Part shown: positions 15,939-60,536 of the stretch, piece by piece
Layout: every line of letters begins with the position of its first letter
Position numbering within the stretch: position 1 is the first letter of the stretch
Assembly (NCBI GenBank): GCA_014729775.1
Contig: WJJJ01000006.1
Location: 16,694-80,693, forward strand
DNA from: Candidatus Omnitrophota bacterium
GTDB lineage: Bacteria; Omnitrophota; Gorgyraeia; Duberdicusellales; 4484-171
DNA length: 64,000 nt
Direction: 5' to 3'
The notes under the pieces: model-generated
Database searches by the model: none
Seen by the model: only the letters and a program-made list of their open reading frames with translations
What the model was told of the DNA's origin: nothing
Position numbers and translations under genes: made by a program

Positions 15939-16853
15939 TTACTCCACCCGTACCTTGAGCCGTTTTCCGCCCCAGTTCGTAATTCCGAAATTATCCGTAA
16001 AAAAAACGACCACCCTGTCCCAGTCTTCCTTGAATATCTTCATCGGGATGTTGTCATGCCCGATACCCGGCTCCACCTTTTTCACGTAAGGTTTATTCAT
16101 TTCATTAAACCACTTCTCCAGCTTCAGCAGAGTTTCGTAGGCGCTATCCTGATCACCGCACACCATTAATGTCCGCGGCAGACGACGCGCGTCCTCTTTA
16201 CGGAACCCCGGCGGCAGGAATCCGGCCACCATCGCGAACAGTTTCACCCGGGGATCCGCGGAGGCAACCTCAAGCCCGATCGTCCCGCCCAGAGAATACC
16301 CAACGATGCCTATTTTTTCTTTATCGGCGTTCGGGATCATTTGAGCGTAATCAACGACGCGAACGAACGTGTTTCCCCAATTGCTCCGCGCGCTTTGGAA
16401 ATAATGCACGTTGATCGCGATCACCCCTTCGTTCATCAAATCGGTCGCGAATCTTTTATACCGCTGGGCCCGGTCTCCTTGAATTCCGGCCGAACCGTGG
16501 ATCAGGATCACCACCGGACAAAGTGAGGTGCCGGGATTGTATACGTCGATCCGGACTTCATCATCTCCTACTTCTATCGTTTCCCGACTGAGCCCTTTCA
16601 CTGCTTTTGCCGCAGGGAATTCGGAAGAACCTATTTCTTCGATGTCATCCTTCCAGTAGGTAAGGATCGTCCCGTACCTTTTAACTTTGATGTATTCGTC
16701 GGTCTGTTCGATAATCGGCGCGCGGATCACCTCTCCGCGTTTCAAACGGATCACTTCCGCGAAACCCGGACCGATCCCCCCCCAAATCCCTGCCGAGAAT
16801 ACCGCCGCCGACACCCAGCACAATAAATGTTTTTTCATCGTTCTCCTCATCAC
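15939..16853 (-). CDS. secreted alpha/beta hydrolase (esterase/dienelactone-hydrolase-like) with the shared N-terminal module
   Basis: GYSLGG nucleophile elbow, a later His, and N-terminal module EVIRLKRGEVIRAPIIEQTDEYIKVKRYGTILTYWKDDIEEI. Confidence 0.65.
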   Translation of the reverse strand: MMRRTMKKHLLCWVSAAVFSAGIWGGIGPGFAEVIRLKRGEVIRAPIIEQTDEYIKVKRYGTILTYWKDDIEEIGSSEFPAAKAVKGLSRETIEVGDDEVRIDVYNPGTSLCPVVILIHGSAGIQGDRAQRYKRFATDLMNEGVIAINVHYFQSARSNWGNTFVRVVDYAQMIPNADKEKIGIVGYSLGGTIGLEVASADPRVKLFAMVAGFLPPGFRKEDARRLPRTLMVCGDQDSAYETLLKLEKWFNEMNKPYVKKVEPGIGHDNIPMKIFKEDWDRVVVFFTDNFGITNWGGKRLKVRVE

Positions 16854-31371: not shown

Positions 31372-31695
31372 TCAACCCCTTTTTGCCTCATCGATCAGCC
31401 GGTTCAGGGTACGGTCATAGCGCGTCAAACACTCATCCATCACCACATCCGGCTCCCGCCCGGCCTCAAGGATCAGCTCAAGACACAGCACGGCCAGATC
31501 CCCGGCCTCGGTGATCCCGTGCGGATCGCCGGCCTCAAGCAGCGCACGGACTTCGTCCACGTGCTTCTCGGCCAGCCGAAGCAGTTTCTGCTCATGCTCC
31601 TTCCCTTTTCCGCCGTTGCAGTGCTGAGAAAGAGAGTGGATGTCCTTCAACCGCTCCTGGGCGTCACTGGTAAATATCGATGGTTGTCGCTCCAT
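31372..31695 (-). CDS. small MazG-like nucleotide pyrophosphohydrolase domain protein (tentative)
   Basis: EAGDLAVLCLELILEAG..DVVMDECLTRYDRTLNR resembles the MazG EELGDxLxxxxxxA...D....i..KL.RR helix pair. Confidence 0.35.
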   Translation of the reverse strand: MERQPSIFTSDAQERLKDIHSLSQHCNGGKGKEHEQKLLRLAEKHVDEVRALLEAGDPHGITEAGDLAVLCLELILEAGREPDVVMDECLTRYDRTLNRLIDEAKRG

Positions 31696-31767
31696 TTGTA
31701 TATCCGGCAGCCTCTCTCGACAGCGGCCACGATGCCTGTTTCGTCCTTCGGCTGCGTGTGCGTGTCC

Positions 31768-31860
31768 GCATATCAGGACATCAGTATATCAGCAGGCAAC
31801 AGATCAATGTATCAGGTGATCAAGAATTATGCGCATGCATCCCGGCCTGCTGCTTCTCCG
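31768..31860. repeat. intergenic repeat element copy A (ATATCAG family)
   Basis: GCATATCAGGACATCAGTATATCAGCAGGC ... GCCTGCTG inverted partner; 27/29 identical to copy C. Confidence 0.55.
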
Positions 31861-31945
31861 ACACCCTGACTACTACTCCCCTCGTCTGCCGGCCCGCTCT
31901 CTCCGACCCTTCCCTTCCAGGCTTCTTACCTCTTCTTCCCGTCTC

Positions 31946-32311
31946 TCACGCCGCATAAATAAACACCACGCCCACCGCGCAGGTAACCAACGCGAACACG
32001 CGGATCAACGGATCCGGGCTGCGCTCTATTTTTCCCATTATCGGCTGCAGCCCCCCGGAACGGAGCAGGAGGATCAGGGCGCCTTTGAGTACCGCGATCA
32101 CCCCGAACAGCGTGATCACAAACGACAAGCGGCACTGGGAGGCGGCAAAAAGAAGAAAAATTCCGACGATGAAGGCGATCGGCGCCGACCACAGGATCCG
32201 ATTACCCCGCTGCCAGAACACCAGCCACCGCCGCAAAATCTGAGGCCGGATGAGGTAGGCAACTCCCTCGGCCATGAATACAATACCCAGGAGTTTGACG
32301 ATTTCGGACAT
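31946..32311 (-). CDS. small hypothetical membrane protein (3-4 TM)
   Basis: 121-aa hydrophobic ORF flanked by repeat elements. No recognisable motif. Confidence 0.4.
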   Translation of the reverse strand: MSEIVKLLGIVFMAEGVAYLIRPQILRRWLVFWQRGNRILWSAPIAFIVGIFLLFAASQCRLSFVITLFGVIAVLKGALILLLRSGGLQPIMGKIERSPDPLIRVFALVTCAVGVVFIYAA

Positions 32312-32363
32312 ATCTCCCCCTTTTTTTTAACCCTAAACGCTAAATCCTCCACAAAGAAAAGTA

Positions 32364-32466
32364 AATCAGGATATCAGTTTATCGGAAACCATGAAAGTGT
32401 ATGCCGCAATGCGGTTTATCTGATAAACTCCCCACCCATATCCTGTGATACTGATATACTGTATCT
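32364..32466. repeat. intergenic repeat element copy B
   Basis: AAATCAGGATATCAG.. left end, CCTGTGATACTGATATACTGTATCTC right end, and an internal GTTTATC-T-GATAAAC palindrome. Confidence 0.5.
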
Positions 32467-34706: not shown

Positions 34707-35609
34707 TTAGAATGCTCTGTCCGATATCCGTTCACCCGGCCAGGTGCTCACGCCAAAATTATCTGCGAACCACATCACGATGCTGCGCCAGTTATCCCAG
34801 AACATCGTCATGGGAATAGTGTGGCCGTAACCCTTATCTACTTCGTAGGTAAACGACTTTCCGTATTCTTCATACCAGGATTTCAGCCTGCGCAGGGTTT
34901 TTATGGAGTTGTCCTTGCTGCCGCTGCGGAAATACATCTTGGGCAGACGCGACGCGTGAAACTTGGTAAAACCCGGGGGGAAGTATCCGGCACTAATCGC
35001 GAGCAGTTTGATCCGCGGATCGCGAGAGGCCACCTGCAGGGCGACGGTCCCGCCGAGCGAGTATCCCACCATCCCGATTTTGTCTTCGTCCGCATTGGGA
35101 ATCGACTGGGCAAAATCGATCGCTTTGACGAATGTCCGCACCCACATCGGTTGGGAACTTTCAAAATAATGGACGTTGACCGCGATAATCCCCTGGTTCA
35201 TTAAGTCGTAACCGAAGCGGCGATAACGCGAGGCACGCTTGCCCGTGATTCCGGCCGACCCGTGGATCACCAGCACCACGGGAGAACCAGGACGGCCGGG
35301 GTTGTAGACATCTACCTTTACCCGCTTGTTGCCCAGAGTGAGATATTCGGTGGATTCTCCCATGGAAACCGCTTCGCCCTGATCGATCGCTTCCCCGTGC
35401 TCTCCGCTCCCGGCGCCTTCAATCGATTCAATATCCGATTTCCAGTAGGTCAGCGGCACCCCGGATATTTCAATCTTCACGTACTCCCCGGTCTGCTCGA
35501 CAATCTTCCCCCGCACTTCGTTCCCGTTCTTGAGCACGAGGGTTTCAGCACAGAGCGCGAACGGAAGAAAAAAAAGAAAAGATAAGCTGAGCGTGAATAC
35601 CTTCTTCAT
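34707..35609 (-). CDS. secreted alpha/beta hydrolase, paralog of 15939..16853, with the shared N-terminal module
   Basis: GYSLGG nucleophile elbow, collinear with 15939..16853 over its whole length; module ETLVLKNGNEVRGKIVEQTGEYVKIEISGVPLTYWKSDIESI. Confidence 0.65.
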   Translation of the reverse strand: MKKVFTLSLSFLFFLPFALCAETLVLKNGNEVRGKIVEQTGEYVKIEISGVPLTYWKSDIESIEGAGSGEHGEAIDQGEAVSMGESTEYLTLGNKRVKVDVYNPGRPGSPVVLVIHGSAGITGKRASRYRRFGYDLMNQGIIAVNVHYFESSQPMWVRTFVKAIDFAQSIPNADEDKIGMVGYSLGGTVALQVASRDPRIKLLAISAGYFPPGFTKFHASRLPKMYFRSGSKDNSIKTLRRLKSWYEEYGKSFTYEVDKGYGHTIPMTMFWDNWRSIVMWFADNFGVSTWPGERISDRAF

Positions 35610-37925: not shown

Positions 37926-39068
37926 CTAGGAGAATTCCTGAAAAAGGTGGGCGAACGACACCCCGCACACCTCCCCGGCCCAGTACTGAGAGGTCACGTT
38001 CTGCATCGCTTCGAATAAATCCTCGTTCTGGATCCCGTTCTTCACCGAAAGATACGCCTCCACGAACGCGCAGAGATTATCCACCGCCTTGACCAGACTG
38101 CCGCTTTTGTACATTTCTCCTTTTTCGTCTTTAAGATCGGTAAATTCGCTCTCGGTATACATCCGCAGCTGCGCCTGCCACCGCTCGGGAATAAGCGTGT
38201 AAATCTTATTTTCCATCTCCTCCCGTTCGTACTCCTTGATAATGTCGCTTAACCCCTCCACCGACCGCTTTACCGGATTGATCACGTCGCGGGTAAGCAC
38301 CTCGGGAAGGTCGTGGAATAGTCCGGTGAAATAATTATTGGCACACTGCTCCCGGTTGGCGTTCACTTGCAGGGAAAACAAATAGGTCAGCATCGCGACC
38401 AGCAGCATGTGTCCCAGCACGGCGGTGCGCGGCACCCGGTGCAGATGGCTCCAGCGCACCTGAAACCGGAGCTGGCCACAGATGTTGACGAAATGCCGCA
38501 GCTTCTGGGAAAAAAGAAACTGCTGCATGCTTTTCAAATCGCCGTATTTTTCCTGCTTGGATCGGATATCCCTGCGGATCTCGCCGATACCGTATCCGGC
38601 CGGATTGGCGCGTTCGATAATATCAAATTCCCATTTGGTCGCGTAGAAATGGGCCGCGCTGATTATCCGCCGGTTGACGTTGCGTTCCCGGTCAAGCAGA
38701 TAATCCCGGAACCGCGTGCAGAAATCAGGTCCCAGCGGCGCGATGACCTCGTGAATCCGCTCATAGGCCCACTGGTTCAGCTGAACATATTTATCCCAGT
38801 CCTCTTTAATCCGGTGAAAAAGCGGAGGCTTGAGATCGGTCAGGACGGTACGCTGGAGATATTCGAAAATCCCCGCTTCGATGATCTGAATCCAGTCAAA
38901 CTCATCTGAAGTGCCTAGATCCTCCTCGAATTTCCCCAGCACAAACGCAATGATCATTTTATGCGCCTGCTTGTCCAGCTCGGTGAGTTCAACGGTCCGG
39001 ATCTGATCATTCCAGCGCTGCATGCTCGCCGCTTCGAATAATTTTAATAACAGAGGTTTATGAACCAT
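37926..39068 (-). CDS. HD-domain hydrolase (YfbR-like core with ~180-aa insertion)
   Basis: N-terminal LLKLFEAASMQRWNDQIRTVELTELDKQAHKM and FHDLPEVLTRDVINPVK correspond to the YfbR N-terminal helix and HD motif, but are separated by a long insert. Confidence 0.6.
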   Translation of the reverse strand: MVHKPLLLKLFEAASMQRWNDQIRTVELTELDKQAHKMIIAFVLGKFEEDLGTSDEFDWIQIIEAGIFEYLQRTVLTDLKPPLFHRIKEDWDKYVQLNQWAYERIHEVIAPLGPDFCTRFRDYLLDRERNVNRRIISAAHFYATKWEFDIIERANPAGYGIGEIRRDIRSKQEKYGDLKSMQQFLFSQKLRHFVNICGQLRFQVRWSHLHRVPRTAVLGHMLLVAMLTYLFSLQVNANREQCANNYFTGLFHDLPEVLTRDVINPVKRSVEGLSDIIKEYEREEMENKIYTLIPERWQAQLRMYTESEFTDLKDEKGEMYKSGSLVKAVDNLCAFVEAYLSVKNGIQNEDLFEAMQNVTSQYWAGEVCGVSFAHLFQEFS

Positions 39069-40395
39069 GATGAGACGGGAGGTCTTTCAGTAAAATATTC
39101 GACTCGGCACCGGCGATCCGACGATTGAAATCAGCAAGCACCGATTTCAGTTTTTTCAAGGAAGAGGTTTCAGGCACGGGAATACTCGTCGACCCGTGGG
39201 ATTCCAGCGTCCGGAGCACCGACGCGACGGTCAATGAATGCGCGTCCCTGGCCGGCTGATACGCGGTATCCTGGTAGCCGGAAAGTTGTACTTCGTTAGC
39301 CAGCCCGTCCTGTTGAAGCTCAAAGAGTATATCCCGTACCAGCCGGATGGGAATATCCAGACGGTGGGAAATATCCTCTGCGGGAAGAGGCGCTTCTCCC
39401 CGGTCGAATCGGGATACCATCAGATGAAAAATATAGAGTGTCAGAAGACGGCGGTAGTCCAGGCTGATATTGGTGCAGTCGGGCTCGTATTCATAGGTAT
39501 CCACGTTTTGATGAGCGAAAGATATCTCGGCGCCGAACAGCACGATCAGCCAGCTCAACTGCATCCATATCAAAAAAAGCGGCAGCGCGGCGAAACTCCC
39601 GTAAATCGCGTTCATACGGGATGCCCCGATCTGCAGACCGATATAAGCCCACTGCACCACCTGATACACCGTTCCGGCCGCGATCCCGGCCACGATCCCG
39701 GATCTGATATGCACCTTGGTATTCGGCATAAACACATAGATAAAGGAAAACAGGATCCACAGCACGACAAACGGCAGGAGCCTGAGCAAAAAGAAGATCA
39801 CCGGACTGAAGGCCCCCAGAAGCGCGGTTTTTTCGACAAGCAGGGTCACCTGACTTTGAATAAAAACAGTGACACTGCTAGAAACGATAAACAGCACCGG
39901 ACAAACCATCATCACCGACAGATAATCGCTGAACTTTCGTCCGATCGACCGAGGTTTCTTCACCCCCCAGATATCGTTGAAGGAACGTTCGATATTCCCG
40001 AGCACCCGAATCACCGTCCAGAACAGAAAAACGACGCCGATCCCTGCGACCACGCCGCCGCGCGTATTCTCCAGCAAAGTACGGGAAAAGGTAATGATCC
40101 TGGTCACCACTTCTTCCTGGCCCGAAAACTTGGTGAGCAGCTGCCTCTCCAGCATTTTGTCCAGGCCGAAGCCTTTGGCGATGCCAAACAGCAGAGCGAA
40201 TACCGGCACGATTGAGAGAAGAGAGAAAAAGGTAAGAGCCGAAGCCCACAACCGGCACTTATCTTCCTGAAATCCGCGTAAGCTGAGCACCACCACCCGC
40301 AGGGGTTTGATCACATATGATCTTTTTCCGGCAAGGTCCCGGCCGCGCACGCGCCAAATGTCCCGGGTGAGGAATTGAATGATTTTTTTTACCAT
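39058..40395 (-). CDS. YihY/BrkB-family inner membrane protein
   Basis: Six TM helices, LTFFSLLSIVP and GAEISF motifs, 445 aa. Confidence 0.7.
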   Translation of the reverse strand: MVKKIIQFLTRDIWRVRGRDLAGKRSYVIKPLRVVVLSLRGFQEDKCRLWASALTFFSLLSIVPVFALLFGIAKGFGLDKMLERQLLTKFSGQEEVVTRIITFSRTLLENTRGGVVAGIGVVFLFWTVIRVLGNIERSFNDIWGVKKPRSIGRKFSDYLSVMMVCPVLFIVSSSVTVFIQSQVTLLVEKTALLGAFSPVIFFLLRLLPFVVLWILFSFIYVFMPNTKVHIRSGIVAGIAAGTVYQVVQWAYIGLQIGASRMNAIYGSFAALPLFLIWMQLSWLIVLFGAEISFAHQNVDTYEYEPDCTNISLDYRRLLTLYIFHLMVSRFDRGEAPLPAEDISHRLDIPIRLVRDILFELQQDGLANEVQLSGYQDTAYQPARDAHSLTVASVLRTLESHGSTSIPVPETSSLKKLKSVLADFNRRIAGAESNILLKDLPSHHGS

Positions 40396-40773: not shown

Positions 40774-41430
40774 TCAGCTTTCAATCCCATATTTTTGCGA
40801 TACTTCCCGCAAAAACCGCTGCGTTTTTTCCAGCACCTGTCTGGCCGCCTGCATGACTCTCAGCACTTCGGCTTCCGAAATGTCGTCGCGGGCGGCACCC
40901 AGCGTTTCCAGCTGGGTGTCCACTAATTCGGATATGATTTTGAGTTTATGCGCGTAGGTGGAATCCATCACGATTTTTAACGACCTCGGATTTAAATAAT
41001 ACTCCTTCTGTTGAAGAAGGTACTCGTCAAACCACATGTAGTTCATCAATACCGAAATCATCTGCAAACGGTCCCGCAGAGAAAGCAGGTAATACTTCTC
41101 TTTTTCGCTGATCCCCTCGTCGTTCCAGCGGCCCTTTAAAAAATTGTCGAGCCGGGTATAGACCGAATCGAGTTCCCGGAAATGCTGTTCAAACGGTCCC
41201 GCGAACTGCCCGTAATCGATCCTGGGCTTCATCTCCTCCGGCAGAAGCACTTCGCCCGCAGACGACCCTGCCCTCTGACCAGGACAAAGATGTTCTTCGG
41301 GAACGAATTGAAACACCATCGCCGCGCCGGCGGCACCTGCGGCAAGAAGCGAGAGAATCCACAAAATAAGATACCGGCTTCGCGCGTTCTTCATAAGAAG
41401 TATCATAACTCTTTTTGCGCAAGAAATCAA
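40774..41430 (-). CDS. hypothetical membrane-anchored protein (operon gene 4)
   Basis: N-terminal TM helix and a soluble domain. No recognisable motif. Confidence 0.4.
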   Translation of the reverse strand: MISCAKRVMILLMKNARSRYLILWILSLLAAGAAGAAMVFQFVPEEHLCPGQRAGSSAGEVLLPEEMKPRIDYGQFAGPFEQHFRELDSVYTRLDNFLKGRWNDEGISEKEKYYLLSLRDRLQMISVLMNYMWFDEYLLQQKEYYLNPRSLKIVMDSTYAHKLKIISELVDTQLETLGAARDDISEAEVLRVMQAARQVLEKTQRFLREVSQKYGIES

Positions 41431-41439
41431 TCGCGGAAA

Positions 41440-42363
41440 TTATTTTGCGGGAGCGGAAGAAGTAGTCACCGGCGGTCCCGCGGGCGCAGAAGAGCCCGAA
41501 TCTCCCGCGGACGGAGTAAGCGAAGGAAGGACCGGCTTTTCCAGGAAATGGTGATCAAGCGAGGCGGCCTGCGGCGGCATTTCTTTGGGCGGCGCGTTCT
41601 CGGCGACCGGGATGCTTTCGTCGCCGTAGGAAACCTTGAAGGGAAAGACGAACTGCACGGCTTTTACCGCCCGGTTATCGTAATCGAACTTAGTCTGCAC
41701 GTTGGGAAATATGAGCTTGATCTCTTCAATCCTGAAATCGGATTCCGGAAAAAACACGTGTCCTTCGTATTTGACGTTCGGATATATGTAGCCGCTGCGC
41801 AGCATCACTTTTTCCAGCATCGCGTCAATCCGATTGGTTTTTCGCTGAAAAAAATAATTTGCGATCTTAAAAGGCGCGTCGTAGTACCCCGGCGCGTAAT
41901 CCTCCCCAGCCTGAGTAAATCCCGATACCGGTTTCGACCAGCCCTTGGGCTGGGGCCGATAATAAGCCGCCAGATTCTGGTGCTGACCGTGCAGGTCATC
42001 GACGATAATGCACTGCTCCGGATAAATCCGGATCGGCTCATCGCTGAAATTGGCGATTTTCACGTCAAATACGATGGAATCATCCGGATAGGGATTATGC
42101 GCCCTGGTGCCGAAGAATTCACTGTCCAGAAAGAATTTATCGAGTTCCGCATGGGTCATGTGGGTAACGGTGATCTTGATATCTTCCTTGAGCACCGTCC
42201 GCGTTTTGGGCCGCAAAGAAAACTCCCCTGGCACCCGGTTTCGCTGACGGGAATAGAATTCCCGTTTTGAAAACTGCTCAAACGCCGGATTGTGCGAACT
42301 CCCGCAGCCGCTCACCGCACATAATCCGGCACACACGCAGCCGACAATGAAAATATTCTTCAT
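41440..42363 (-). CDS. hypothetical lipoprotein with Pro/Ser-rich C-terminal tail (operon gene 3)
   Basis: Lipobox AVSGCG at the chosen start MKNIFIVGCVCAG; low-complexity tail (PSAGDSGSSAPAGPPVTTSSAPA). Confidence 0.45.
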   Translation of the reverse strand: MKNIFIVGCVCAGLCAVSGCGSSHNPAFEQFSKREFYSRQRNRVPGEFSLRPKTRTVLKEDIKITVTHMTHAELDKFFLDSEFFGTRAHNPYPDDSIVFDVKIANFSDEPIRIYPEQCIIVDDLHGQHQNLAAYYRPQPKGWSKPVSGFTQAGEDYAPGYYDAPFKIANYFFQRKTNRIDAMLEKVMLRSGYIYPNVKYEGHVFFPESDFRIEEIKLIFPNVQTKFDYDNRAVKAVQFVFPFKVSYGDESIPVAENAPPKEMPPQAASLDHHFLEKPVLPSLTPSAGDSGSSAPAGPPVTTSSAPAK

Positions 42364-42441: not shown

Positions 42442-43116
42442 TTATCTGGGGACCGTTTCCCCGCGTAAAATTCCGGGCAGAGGCTCGGCGTCGATTCTCA
42501 GACCTCCGTCATGCTCGATACGGATAGTATACAGCAGACCGGGACGGAACCGCGTCCCCGGAGCCTCGATCTGAGCGCTTTTCACCCCCGCGGCATCGGC
42601 CTGTTCCGGATCCAACGCGTATTCCCAGAATCGCCGCCACAGCCGGCGTTCGAACCGGCTTTGCACGCCGGGAATTTTGTACCCCGCGGGAATTTCATTC
42701 ACCGGAGTAATCACGAACTCCTGGGTCTCGGGCCCGTCGAGCATAAACACCTTCCAGAACAGGTACGCGCTTTTGCCCCGTAACGCGTCCTGCTGACGCA
42801 GATGAATATCACGGAACCTGATCACTAACGACTGGAACTGGATCATATCGCCGGAAAACGTATAATATTGAGGCTGGAGCGGACGGCCTTCGCTATCATA
42901 TTCCAGGAATTTAATCGTGGTGCGGTGGGCATTGGTCGCGGGAATATCCTCCACCGCAGTCACCAGCACTTCAGCCGCGCGCGAATCCGCTTCCAGACGC
43001 GATACCATCCGGCGCAGGATCTCCTGCTGCCGCAATGAACGGTAATAAAGGAACCCCGCGGTCGCGGCGGCAGCGATCATCAGCAAGATAAGAAAAGAAT
43101 AAATCTTCGCGGACAT
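42442..43116 (-). CDS. hypothetical membrane-anchored protein (operon gene 2)
   Basis: N-terminal TM helix (IYSFLILLMIAAAATAGFLYY). No recognisable motif. Confidence 0.4.
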   Translation of the reverse strand: MSAKIYSFLILLMIAAAATAGFLYYRSLRQQEILRRMVSRLEADSRAAEVLVTAVEDIPATNAHRTTIKFLEYDSEGRPLQPQYYTFSGDMIQFQSLVIRFRDIHLRQQDALRGKSAYLFWKVFMLDGPETQEFVITPVNEIPAGYKIPGVQSRFERRLWRRFWEYALDPEQADAAGVKSAQIEAPGTRFRPGLLYTIRIEHDGGLRIDAEPLPGILRGETVPR

Positions 43117-43177
43117 CTCCCCCTCCTGGTTCACCTTCAATCATATCCAAAAGGGATTACGGTGTAAAGCGCTTCTT

Positions 43178-43765
43178 TTACATCTCTATCGGAAGGGACT
43201 GCTCTAAGGGAGAACGCGAGCGAAGAATAAGCGGCACTTCATTGGTAATCCGCCTGCCGCCCAGTACGCGCGGCACCCGATGCAGACACCATTCACCCGA
43301 AACCGAAAAAAACTCTAATTTCTGCATCTCAAAATGTCCGTACTCAAAAAAGTCAAAAATTACTTTACCGGTTTTTTTGTCCCGGGAGATGTACCCGCGC
43401 ACAACGTAGGTAAACGGCTGCTGGGGGTCGATTTCCTGAAACTGAACCCTCTTCTTTTCCTGCGAGAAGGACGGCCCGCGGGCGCTGACCAGTTTATCCG
43501 CGGGATGCAGATAAAGATGGATTTCGGGTCTTCCCTTTTTATCCAGCGCGATACGCTGAGGACAGGGAGCGTAGAATTCAAAGATGAGATCAATCCTGTC
43601 TCCCGGGGCGTACTCCTCTTGGGGAGTACGCAGCCGCACCACTACCTCCCGCTGGGAAGAATACAGCGATTCAACCAGTTTTACCGCGCCGAGCACCATC
43701 AACACAAAAACAGTTACCCGCAGGACCCAGCGCCTGACATGAGCGGAAGCAAAAATTGTTCTCAT
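43178..43765 (-). CDS. hypothetical membrane-anchored protein (operon gene 1)
   Basis: N-terminal TM helix (VLRVTVFVLMVLGAVKLV). No recognisable motif. Confidence 0.4.
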   Translation of the reverse strand: MRTIFASAHVRRWVLRVTVFVLMVLGAVKLVESLYSSQREVVVRLRTPQEEYAPGDRIDLIFEFYAPCPQRIALDKKGRPEIHLYLHPADKLVSARGPSFSQEKKRVQFQEIDPQQPFTYVVRGYISRDKKTGKVIFDFFEYGHFEMQKLEFFSVSGEWCLHRVPRVLGGRRITNEVPLILRSRSPLEQSLPIEM

Positions 43766-43868
43766 TGTACACCTCAGTTACACACTCAATTACTATGGTA
43801 AAGACACCGACCTGTTACGTCAAGAGAAAAGGCAAAGGCCGGAAGGAGGGATAAGGGATAAGAAGTAA

Positions 43869-43918
43869 GGGGGTAAGAGAGAAGAGAAGAGAAGAGAAGA
43901 GAAGAGAAGAGAAGAGAA
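43869..43918. repeat. (GAGAA)10 pentanucleotide microsatellite, preceded by degenerate purine-rich copies from ~43830
   Basis: Ten perfect tandem GAGAA units read directly from the sequence, 104-153 bp upstream of the 43765 start codon. Confidence 0.9.
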
Positions 43919-44083
43919 AAAACAGTGTGGAGACGGAAAGCAGAGGATCAACGACAGGCAAAAGAGAGCAACAGGACCTCTTTCCTCTGCGCAACAACGC
44001 AGCTATGCAAAATCGAGGATCAATTCGGACGGCACGACTTCCTTTATGCGCACCGGACGCCGCGATACGGGCAGGGAAATTCG

Positions 44084-44608
44084 CTATTCAGTCCCGAGGT
44101 AATCGTCGCGGTTCAAAAGGTCGTAATAATGGTCATTTATGACGGAATCTTCTTTCACGATGCCGTAAGAATGGGTTCCGGTGACCGAATCGTGATCCAC
44201 GGTACGGCCGTAAGGCGAAACCACCGCGTTACTTACCATCACTTCATCGAGCACGCCGGATAATCCGGTAAAAGTCCCTGAGAACACGACATAATCGCCT
44301 TTATTCACGTGTACCGGGAGCGCGAAGGAATCTTTCAGCATCAGCGTGACTTTTACCGCGAACGGCGAATACGGACTCGCTTCAGTGGAAAGCGTCACCC
44401 GGACGTCTTCAAACCGGTTTTTTTCAATACGGGTTACGTACCCTTTTCCGTTGATAAACTTATGAGCGTAATGCGCTTCCAATTCACGAAGCTCAGTTCC
44501 GGAAACGCCGTTGCGCAGCGCACCGTAAATATCCTGAAAAATATAATTCGCGTGTGCGGAACACGGGATCACCGCCAGCGCGATCACACAGATAATCAGC
44601 TTTTTCAT
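44084..44608 (-). CDS. secreted hypothetical protein
   Basis: Signal peptide (LIICVIALAVIPCSAHA). No recognisable motif. Confidence 0.45.
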   Translation of the reverse strand: MKKLIICVIALAVIPCSAHANYIFQDIYGALRNGVSGTELRELEAHYAHKFINGKGYVTRIEKNRFEDVRVTLSTEASPYSPFAVKVTLMLKDSFALPVHVNKGDYVVFSGTFTGLSGVLDEVMVSNAVVSPYGRTVDHDSVTGTHSYGIVKEDSVINDHYYDLLNRDDYLGTE

Positions 44609-44697: not shown

Positions 44698-45078
44698 TTA
44701 CGCTCTTCCCTCCAGAATCTTTCCGACCGTCATCAATAACTCCTGGCTCGTCACCGGTTTCGCGAGAGAACGCACCTCACCGGTGAGATTCTTTAAAAAC
44801 TCTTCGTCTTCTTTGGTCAAAATCCCGGTAAGAAACAACGTCGGAATCATATTGGTTTGTTCATCTTCGGAAAGCAGCCGCTTGATATCTTCTCCGCGCA
44901 TACCGGGCATAATCACGTCCAGGATGATCAAATCCGGCTGGTGCTTTTTCGCGAGCGTAAACGCTTCTTTCCCTTCTGTCGTGGAAACGACCTCATAATC
45001 CGCCCGCTGAAGCATTTGCGTGATTACACGAACCACCTCTTCCTCATCATCCACAAGCAAAATCTTCTTATTCTCCAC
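44698..45078 (-). CDS. single-domain response regulator (CheY-like receiver)
   Basis: KILLVDDEEEV..DLIILDVIMPGM..K motifs. GTG start at 45078 is preceded by AAGGAGG; the longer ORF reaches 45147. Confidence 0.7.
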   Translation of the reverse strand: MENKKILLVDDEEEVVRVITQMLQRADYEVVSTTEGKEAFTLAKKHQPDLIILDVIMPGMRGEDIKRLLSEDEQTNMIPTLFLTGILTKEDEEFLKNLTGEVRSLAKPVTSQELLMTVGKILEGRA

Positions 45079-45240
45079 TCCCCCTCCTTGATTACGTACT
45101 TCTTCCCTTGTTATTGTACTCCATTTTCTCAAGAAAGACAATAGCATCCTGCGGAGGATCTGAATCGCGCGTATCAGGTGACCGGGACGAAGAGAGCGAG
45201 TTCCTTTATGAAGAGCTGATCTCGCGGCTACACCGAAATC

Positions 45241-45375
45241 GCATATCAGGACATCAGAATATCAGCGGGAAGTAGACTAAGGCATCAGACTATCGAGAAT
45301 AATAAGCGTGTATTCTGCTCTGTTTCTTTTCTGCCCCCCCCCGCTCACTGATATCTTATACTGATATACTCTATC
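45241..45375. repeat. intergenic repeat element copy C (most complete)
   Basis: Left arm GCATATCAGGACATCAGAATATCAGCGGG. Right arm CCCGCTCACTGATATCTTATACTGATATACTCTATC. The arm termini are reverse complements of each other. Confidence 0.6.
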
Positions 45376-47534: not shown

Positions 47535-47548
47535 TCACCTCCACATAT

Positions 47549-47569
47549 ATGATACTATTTTAGTATCAT
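47549..47569. promoter_or_regulatory. perfect 9-3-9 palindrome ATGATACTA-TTT-TAGTATCAT, candidate Rrf2 operator
   Basis: Read directly from the sequence; it lies 15-35 bp upstream of the rrf2 start codon, adjacent to the RBS GGAGGTG. Confidence 0.4.
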
Positions 47570-47640
47570 TTGTCAAGAAGGATCTCCTTTCCCGCGCTCC
47601 CGGACACGCCCCCCGTAAACGCCCCCTGTGAACTTCACCC

Positions 47641-47664
47641 CTGTTAACTTCAGAAGTTAACCAG
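47641..47664. promoter_or_regulatory. palindrome GTTAACTTC-A-GAAGTTAAC plus flanking CCTGTkAACTTCA and AAyGGGAGG direct repeats (47625..47751)
   Basis: Read directly from the sequence. Confidence 0.35.
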
Positions 47665-47983
47665 AGGTAATAAAATCAACGGTTTTTCACCGGTCGTGTC
47701 AACCTACGAAGTTAACGGGAGGAAGTTAATGGGAGGTACGCGAACGGGAGGTGAACAGGAAGAGACCAGATTGGTCGTTTCTTGACATCTTGGGTTACAG
47801 AACGGGAACAGGAAATGAGTGATCTGGCAGAGGATTGAAAAAGAGGGGAATATTCCGGATGTGTATGTTGAGCTAATGATTCGGATAGAGCTTGGGACCT
47901 TTCTTTTCTTCCGGCTTCTCTGCTTCTTTGCCGCTTGCCTCCTTACTCCTCTTCTCTTTTACCCTTCCCCAACCTACGCGGAT

Positions 47984-48072
47984 GAATCAGATTCGCATAT
48001 CAAAATATCAGTAGGAAGCGTGTCAAGCTCTCCGGCTATCAGAAACTGTTTCCACAGAGTTCTGATACCTCC
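47984..48072. repeat. intergenic repeat element copy E
   Basis: GCATATCAAAATATCAGTAGG left end and TATCAGAAACTG..CAGAGTTCTGATACCTCC right end. Confidence 0.45.
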
Positions 48073-48148
48073 TTCTCTTTTGCTTCTTACTTCTTCAGTC
48101 TCTCCTTCCCTCCAGGCTCAAGGATCGTGGATCCAGCGCATCCCGCCT

Positions 48149-60410: not shown

Positions 60411-60536
60411 CTTATATCAGCACATAGGGATATCGGTCAAAAGCGGATAAGAGCATCAGATATTATGAGAATGCATTCTGATATGCTGCTCCTCTGAGAA
60501 CCTGCCCGCTGATCTCCTGGTCTGCTGATATACCCT
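60411..60536. repeat. intergenic repeat element copy D
   Basis: CTTATATCAGCACATAGGGATATCGG / GAGCATCAGATAT.. left end and CCCGCTGATCTCCTGGTCTGCTGATATACCCTC right end, similar to copy C. Confidence 0.5.

Follow-up and report, generated by a model that had tools for sequence, protein, structure and literature searches.

A perfect (GAGAA)8 tract upstream of a predicted promoter for exported orphan proteins in a Candidatus Omnitrophica genome: one candidate contingency locus

A short-read metagenome-assembled genome of a Candidatus Omnitrophica bacterium carries a perfect (GAGAA)8 repeat at positions 43879-43918, on the + strand of the 64 kb window analysed here (the window is the whole stretch of DNA under study, 64,000 nt, with positions counted from its first base). 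The repeat lies 165 bp past the stop codon of g0, within the 318 bp that separate this gene from g1 (Table 1); both genes run in the same direction on the minus strand. By analogy with the upstream repeats of nadA, hmw and vlhA, the single most likely reading, to which we give a probability of roughly 0.37, is that of a slippage-prone repeat that tunes the transcription of g1. Slipped-strand mispairing at replication would add or remove 5-bp units, and each such step would shift all the DNA upstream of the tract by 5 bp relative to the -35 and -10 hexamers, equivalent to roughly 17 angstroms and half a turn of the helix. Transcription of g1, and perhaps of the genes downstream, would go up or down as a result, in a manner both heritable and reversible. 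Both premises of this mechanism, namely the hypermutability of the tract and an effect of its length on expression, are ones that we infer. The points in favour of a switch are that (i), the tract is perfect and unique in the window, (ii), it is placed upstream of a predicted promoter, (iii), it does not coincide with a chimeric join and, (iv), the products encoded downstream are anchored by a transmembrane (TM) segment or are lipoproteins, and are lineage-specific orphans. Against it count the distance of the tract from the predicted core promoter and the fact that it stands alone, when several contingency loci are usually present in genomes that rely on them. We regard the tract as one candidate contingency locus.

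Table 1. Coordinates of the genes and sequence elements at the repeat locus.
Feature	Position	Strand	Remarks
g0, 174 aa, secreted orphan	44084..44608	-	GF333_01215
9-nt direct repeat GAGGATCAA, distal copy	44015..44023		72 bp from proximal copy
9-nt direct repeat GAGGATCAA, proximal copy	43943..43951		candidate distal site, not statistically significant
Segment at least 85% purine on the + strand, 128 nt	43821..43948		longest such segment in the window
Degenerate purine-rich flank, RRRTAAG x4	43841..43878	no strand	bridges tract and promoter region
Sigma-70-like candidate TTGACG-17-TACCAT	43795..43823	-	consensus match, prediction only; 30 nt upstream of g1 ATG
Shine-Dalgarno-like GAGGTG	43770..43775	-	4 nt before g1 ATG; read from sequence
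g1, 195 aa, N-terminal TM helix and beta-sandwich domain	43178..43765	-	NCBI GF333_01210
Second promoter-like site TTTACA-17-TATGAT, 10/12 matches	43140..43168	-	in the 61-bp gap between g1 and g2
g2, 224 aa, without known domain, TM anchor at the N-terminus	42442..43116	-
g3, 307 aa, lipoprotein (lipobox VSGC), orphan	41440..42363	-	GF333_01200
g4, 206-218 aa, without known domain, TM anchor at the N-terminus	40774..41430	-

The extent of the tract was established with a regular-expression scan of the 64 kb window and with Tandem Repeats Finder, which delimits it at 43878-43918 with a period of 5, 8.2 copies and 100% matches; read on the gene (minus) strand, the tract is (CTCTT)n. The first-pass annotation had counted ten units from 43869 and placed the tract 104 bp from the start codon. 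Positions 43869-43878 read GGGGGTAAGA and contain no GAGAA unit; the actual count is eight, with a first base at 43879 and 113 bp to the g1 ATG at 43765. From base composition, such a tract is expected by chance about 1e-17 times per window. It is the sole simple sequence repeat (SSR) of at least 15 nt in the 64 kb and it sits inside the longest purine run of the window (48 nt). Its description as a slippage-prone SSR was well founded, since a perfect repeat of eight units is beyond the cut-off of at least five units applied by PhasomeIt to candidate phase-variable penta-repeats (PMC6321876), and the CTCTT unit slips at a high rate in the opa genes of Neisseria (PMC13183285). Because the unit number exceeds this threshold and because CTCTT drives opa switching, it is reasonable to infer that the tract is unstable in length.

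Because the genome is a metagenome assembly, we looked for a mis-join at the tract. There is no sign of an assembly join or artefact: the tetranucleotide correlation across the tract is 0.95 (r), compared with 0.14-0.82 for other related genomes, one codon model fits the genes on either side, and 68 of about 70 genes lie on the minus strand without a break. The exact number of units is an assembly consensus and, the source being a short-read assembly, could be off. That the tract as a whole results from a mis-join, or from a collapsed or expanded repeat, is nevertheless very improbable: its 40 bases are shorter than a read, and tetranucleotide composition, codon usage, gene order and strand are all continuous across it.

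The position of the tract relative to the promoter of g1 determines how it may act. The only good sigma-70-like site in the g0-g1 gap, TTGACG-17-TACCAT, has its predicted -35 hexamer at 43823-43818 and its predicted -10 hexamer at 43800-43795, both wholly downstream of the tract, which stands 55 bp away. This site is followed by GAGGTG and then by the ATG at canonical distances, and we consider it a plausible g1 promoter. Sites of this kind are not enriched over shuffled sequences (15 found for 10.8 expected in 14 kb); canonical ones do turn up where they are sensible, as with TTGACA-16-TATCAT ahead of the Rrf2 gene. On this prediction, the tract covers about -91 to -130 from the transcription start, and the degenerate flank fills the space up to the -35 hexamer. 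With 55 bp separating it from the predicted -35 and 113 bp from the start codon, the tract is, as far as the predicted promoter tells, a distal promoter element and not a core-promoter spacer. The TA repeats of hif are an example of a repeat between the -35 and the -10; the GAGAA tract does not occupy such a position. Several mechanistic claims made on first inspection are affected. The tract had been placed inside the promoter region and its unit number was thought to alter the spacing of promoter elements; since the predicted -35 and -10 are both downstream of the tract, gains or losses of units cannot affect the distance between them. The same annotation had named a position of the -35 and -10 elements downstream of the tract as one half of an outcome that would speak against it, and this is where they fall in silico. 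An argument from curvature is also weak, because a 5-bp period should cancel phased bends. What the position is compatible with is a distal effect of the nadA or hmw type, given the predicted promoter. A search upstream of the tract found no credible activator or repressor site, the two copies of GAGGATCAA being compatible with chance, and the motif GAGGATC shows no enrichment across the window (14 copies for 12.5 expected).

Three known systems offer precedents for a repeat in such a place. At nadA of Neisseria meningitidis, a TAAA tract upstream of the core promoter is proposed to act through the spacing of distal elements to the promoter (PMC2791445). The two loci differ in that NadR operators and an IHF site have been mapped around the nadA repeat, whereas no operator was found for the GAGAA tract, the only candidate being the two chance-compatible copies of GAGGATCAA. 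At hmw1A and hmw2A of Haemophilus influenzae, heptamers (TGAAAGA/ATCTTTC)n located 69-106 bp upstream modulate expression according to their number (PMC2651432). Both there and here, a purine/pyrimidine-biased SSR precedes a gene whose product is a surface protein (hmw) or an exported protein (g1), and it is outside the -35/-10 spacer, as predicted in the case of g1; the GAGAA tract is 113 bp from the ATG, is pyrimidine-rich on the gene strand and has heptamer-periodic flanks. The hmw repeats are, in contrast, made of 7 bp in 13-38 copies as against 5 bp in 8 copies, the products are unrelated and the host of the GAGAA tract is an uncultured environmental bacterium. In Mycoplasma gallisepticum, finally, the expression of vlhA depends on the number of repeats in a (GAA)n tract, which is also a homopurine repeat upstream of the promoter, and the vlhA genes are lipoprotein genes (PMC6258824). 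The vlhA repeat is closer to the transcription start (~40 nt upstream, as against ~90 nt here) and is one of many in a large multigene family whose flanks are conserved, whereas the GAGAA tract is a single locus.

The tract does not code for protein: every frame contains a stop codon between the tract and the g1 ATG, and the coding scores of the 60-aa and 43-aa open reading frames (ORFs) that run through the tract are -0.12 and -0.29 per codon, compared with +0.21 for called genes. No Shine-Dalgarno sequence precedes the 60-aa ORF, which had rightly been dismissed as an artefact. These results bear on the comparison with the opa genes of Neisseria, which share with the tract an identical unit on the gene strand at a comparable copy number (PMC13183285). 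The opa repeat lies in the region coding for the signal peptide and acts by frameshift, unlike the GAGAA tract. An opa-like translational switch in a signal-peptide coding region is evoked by the shared unit and by the LLFSS-type hydrophobic peptide that the 60-aa ORF encodes, but it is largely refuted by the stops in three frames and by the negative coding scores; in addition, g1 has its own TM anchor, which aligns with those of its homologues. A purine- and GGA-rich small RNA transcribed from the + strand, for example a CsrA sponge, is suggested by the many GGA motifs on that strand, but neither a promoter nor a terminator was found for it on the + strand. Rfam gives no match at gathering score over the window and none at E <=1 over 43700-44150, and RNA folds of the region are no better than shuffled sequences on both strands. 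Together, we regard these two proposals as scarcely conceivable.

The surroundings of the tract are themselves of low complexity. The purine-rich flank reported earlier, GGAAGGAGGGATAAGGGATAAGAAGTAAGGGGGTAAGA, is indeed present at 43841-43878. It had been taken for degenerate GAGAA copies and this part does not hold: its period is about 7 nt (GGATAAG / GGATAAG / AAGTAAG / GGGGTAAG; Tandem Repeats Finder, AGGGATA x2.3), so that the flank cannot be made of decayed GAGAA units. A degenerate heptamer repeat that resembles this flank, (TCTTACT)5.3 with 83% matches, occupies 2708-2744 in an intergenic region of 212 bp (2577-2788), with the opposite orientation relative to its own genes. A 22-nt match between the tract region and 2705-2726 is at the level expected by chance for low-complexity DNA. 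An origin from a dispersed repeat or MITE was discarded, the intergenic region of the tract showing no significant similarity to the other 32 of the window.

Such surroundings could have seeded a microsatellite of no functional consequence. According to this alternative, the tract is a recent slippage expansion in a purine-rich spacer, perhaps variable in length, with no meaningful effect on genes. The flank, which is already purine-rich and heptamer-periodic, is a plausible seed, and the (TCTTACT)5 repeat is a second degenerate heptamer tract, located between other genes and oriented opposite to them. The tract is moreover outside the predicted core promoter, regulator sites and RNA families were not found around it, and long repeats of 5-11 nt are sporadic in environmental bacteria, at least as the survey of Mrazek et al. 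(2007) is reported in a later paper (PMC4679880). A neutral origin explains less well why the 64 kb window is otherwise devoid of long perfect SSRs, as are 682 kb of related DNA (see below), and eight uninterrupted units beside the promoter of exported orphan proteins is the classic arrangement of a contingency locus. We consider a neutral microsatellite a serious possibility, with the odds nonetheless against it.

The composition of the gene strand suggests another type of function. The minus-strand RNA of 43841-43920 would contain 34 C and no G, which makes it the most extreme 80-nt stretch of the 64 kb for C over G; the 128-nt purine segment of Table 1 holds 44 YC dimers, and the intergenic region of the tract is the sole one of 33 that is strongly pyrimidine-rich on the gene strand (purine 0.67 on the + strand). 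No intrinsic terminator was found after g0. It can be proposed from these data that the G-free, C-rich pyrimidine RNA, ~80-128 nt long, is a Rho loading site or insulator, at which Rho would be recruited and transcripts coming from g0 would end ahead of the g1 promoter; the perfect repeat would then be an incidental route to a CU-rich RNA. The region has indeed the composition of a rut site (~70-80 nt of C-rich, G-poor, unstructured and untranslated RNA after a gene): it starts downstream of the g0 stop codon, with the tract 165 nt past it, the tract is unpaired in the minimum free energy fold and the region as a whole folds no better than shuffled sequences. What argues against this proposal is that a rut site requires a composition and not a perfect repeat, natural rut sites not being perfect tandem repeats, and that the window provides a single example. 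No rho gene was found among the proteins scanned, which were those of the 64 kb window. We hold this role to be unlikely.

Viewed as DNA, the same stretch has a marked symmetry: 43878-43917 is a perfect 40-nt homopurine mirror repeat, whereas the second longest one in the 64 kb measures 18 nt. Homopurine-homopyrimidine composition and mirror symmetry, the two sequence features that define a potential for H-DNA, are thus combined in the tract, and the earlier suggestion that it can adopt this structure is correct in principle. The CTCTT repeats of opa are said to form H-DNA in vitro, as Belland reportedly found in 1991. The tract could then be a static structural element that forms H-DNA under negative supercoiling and serves as a supercoil-sensitive modulator or barrier, whatever its variation in length. 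H-DNA usually requires acidic pH or high superhelical stress, and there is little evidence that it has a function in bacteria. We find this explanation quite improbable.

An N-terminal hydrophobic segment or export signal is present in all five proteins encoded by g0-g4, and the codon usage of the genes is native. The gene coordinates, the hydrophobic N-terminal anchors, the VSGC lipobox and the lack of Pfam or NCBIfam domains reported by the first-pass annotation are all correct, which confirms g1-g4 as exported proteins of unknown function. None of g0-g4 matched an entry of Pfam, NCBIfam or PADLOC, and PHROGs yielded nothing useful; g2 and g4 have no sequence match in the PDB. In a word search of 5.8 billion proteins, which covered g0, g1 and g3, the three queries matched only themselves, g1 with 100% identity to an entry on a 94.8 kb contig. 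An exhaustive HMMER search with g1 recovered 12 distant homologues (E 2.5e-10 to 1.6e-4, 19-29% identity in the alignment), with which the TM anchor of g1 aligns. With the alignment of homologues, AlphaFold gives a confident model of g1 (pLDDT 84.6), an N-terminal helix followed by a beta-sandwich that resembles only generic Ig/FnIII/arrestin-like folds (TM-scores 0.33-0.38). The single-sequence model of g3 is unusable (pLDDT 36.8). As a minor observation, g1 and its 12 distant members form a small undescribed family with the motifs GDxIEL, FDFGxFGxFE and GGxW.

The four-gene operon proposed earlier is doubtful. The TTTACA-17-TATGAT site in the g1-g2 gap is followed by an AGGAGG Shine-Dalgarno sequence and the g2 ATG, and it is a stronger match than the site predicted for g1, which suggests that g2 may be transcribed on its own. 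Because g2 has this better promoter-like site of its own, an operon of four genes is not secure. A gap of 78 bp precedes g3. Downstream of g4, further genes on the same strand follow at gaps of 29 and 91 bp and no terminator was found there, so that no clear operon boundary appears.

Relatives of the locus were sought in several ways. A search of public assemblies found no exact copy on record of the g1, g0, Hcp or P0001 proteins. Close relatives of g1 were found neither in genome contigs (two scans, the second with a 5-sequence alignment) nor in metagenome contigs, and those contig collections likewise yielded no close relative of the neighbouring BrkB gene. The contexts of distant g1 homologues (L001-L005) contain neither the operon neighbours nor an upstream repeat. 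Anchoring the search on the BrkB-like gene yielded 80 metagenome loci (50-60% identity, 682 kb in total), which show no synteny with g0-g4, nor even with the adjacent HD gene, and were used only as a control for the base rate of SSRs. They contain no SSR of at least 20 nt and no purine or pyrimidine run of at least 28 nt. Because long SSRs and purine or pyrimidine runs are absent from these 682 kb of relatives, the tract is exceptional for the lineage and does not reflect a lineage-wide habit of low complexity.

The anchor gene itself, at 39058-40395, encodes a membrane protein of the BrkB/YihY family (E 5e-58) with a C-terminal extension that weakly matches an Rrf2-like winged helix (E 0.0012). 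This architecture appears to be conserved over the full length in the 80 metagenome relatives; the gene neighbourhood is not conserved.

To our knowledge, random switching of surface proteins driven by repeats is known almost entirely from host-adapted pathogens. If the tract varies and affects expression, the same strategy would exist in an uncultured Omnitrophica bacterium, and g1-g4 would stand out as envelope proteins for which selection fluctuates, for instance through contact with prey or attack by phages. If it is functional, a distal-promoter SSR beside envelope genes would be a known arrangement, and the host would be its unusual aspect; if it is invariant, the tract is an isolated intergenic microsatellite of little consequence. 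Phase variation is not known to have been described in Omnitrophota, and two phylum-wide genome surveys do not mention it or simple repeats. Members of this uncultured phylum have been proposed to live by preying on other microbes or parasitising them (PMC10066038). It is tempting to speculate that the tract is the first SSR contingency locus in Omnitrophota, where half-turn steps of 5 bp would toggle lineage-specific envelope proteins for interactions with prey, hosts or phages. We consider this broader claim rather unlikely; if true, bet-hedging by SSRs would extend from animal-adapted pathogens to uncultured environmental nanobacteria.

Other elements were noticed in the window. The intergenic region upstream of the Rrf2-hcp genes (47535-48148) is unusually long (614 bp) and contains three short tandem repeats (47599-47736) as well as long pyrimidine-rich stretches; the best sigma-70-like site of the area, TTGACA-16-TATCAT, is located there (47576..47549). 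An intergenic element of about 100 nt is shared by 31767-31866 and 45240-45339, with 72% identity overall and 96% over a 27-nt core that reads GCTGATAT(A/T)CTGATGTCCTGATATGCG on the minus strand. It precedes two minus-strand genes that are unrelated to each other, one a 107-aa ORF (31372-31695) and the other a stand-alone response regulator (44698-45147), and is a candidate for a common operator or promoter. The heptamer ATATCAG occurs 20 times for 4.9 expected, a number reached in 0 of 100 shuffles, and clusters in a few intergenic regions (31770-32457, 45243-45367, 48005 and 60414-60531), often as close direct or inverted copies. Finally, a 155-nt direct repeat with 70% identity links two coding regions 18.8 kb apart (16393-16547 and 35158-35312), and its copies are probably paralogous gene segments.
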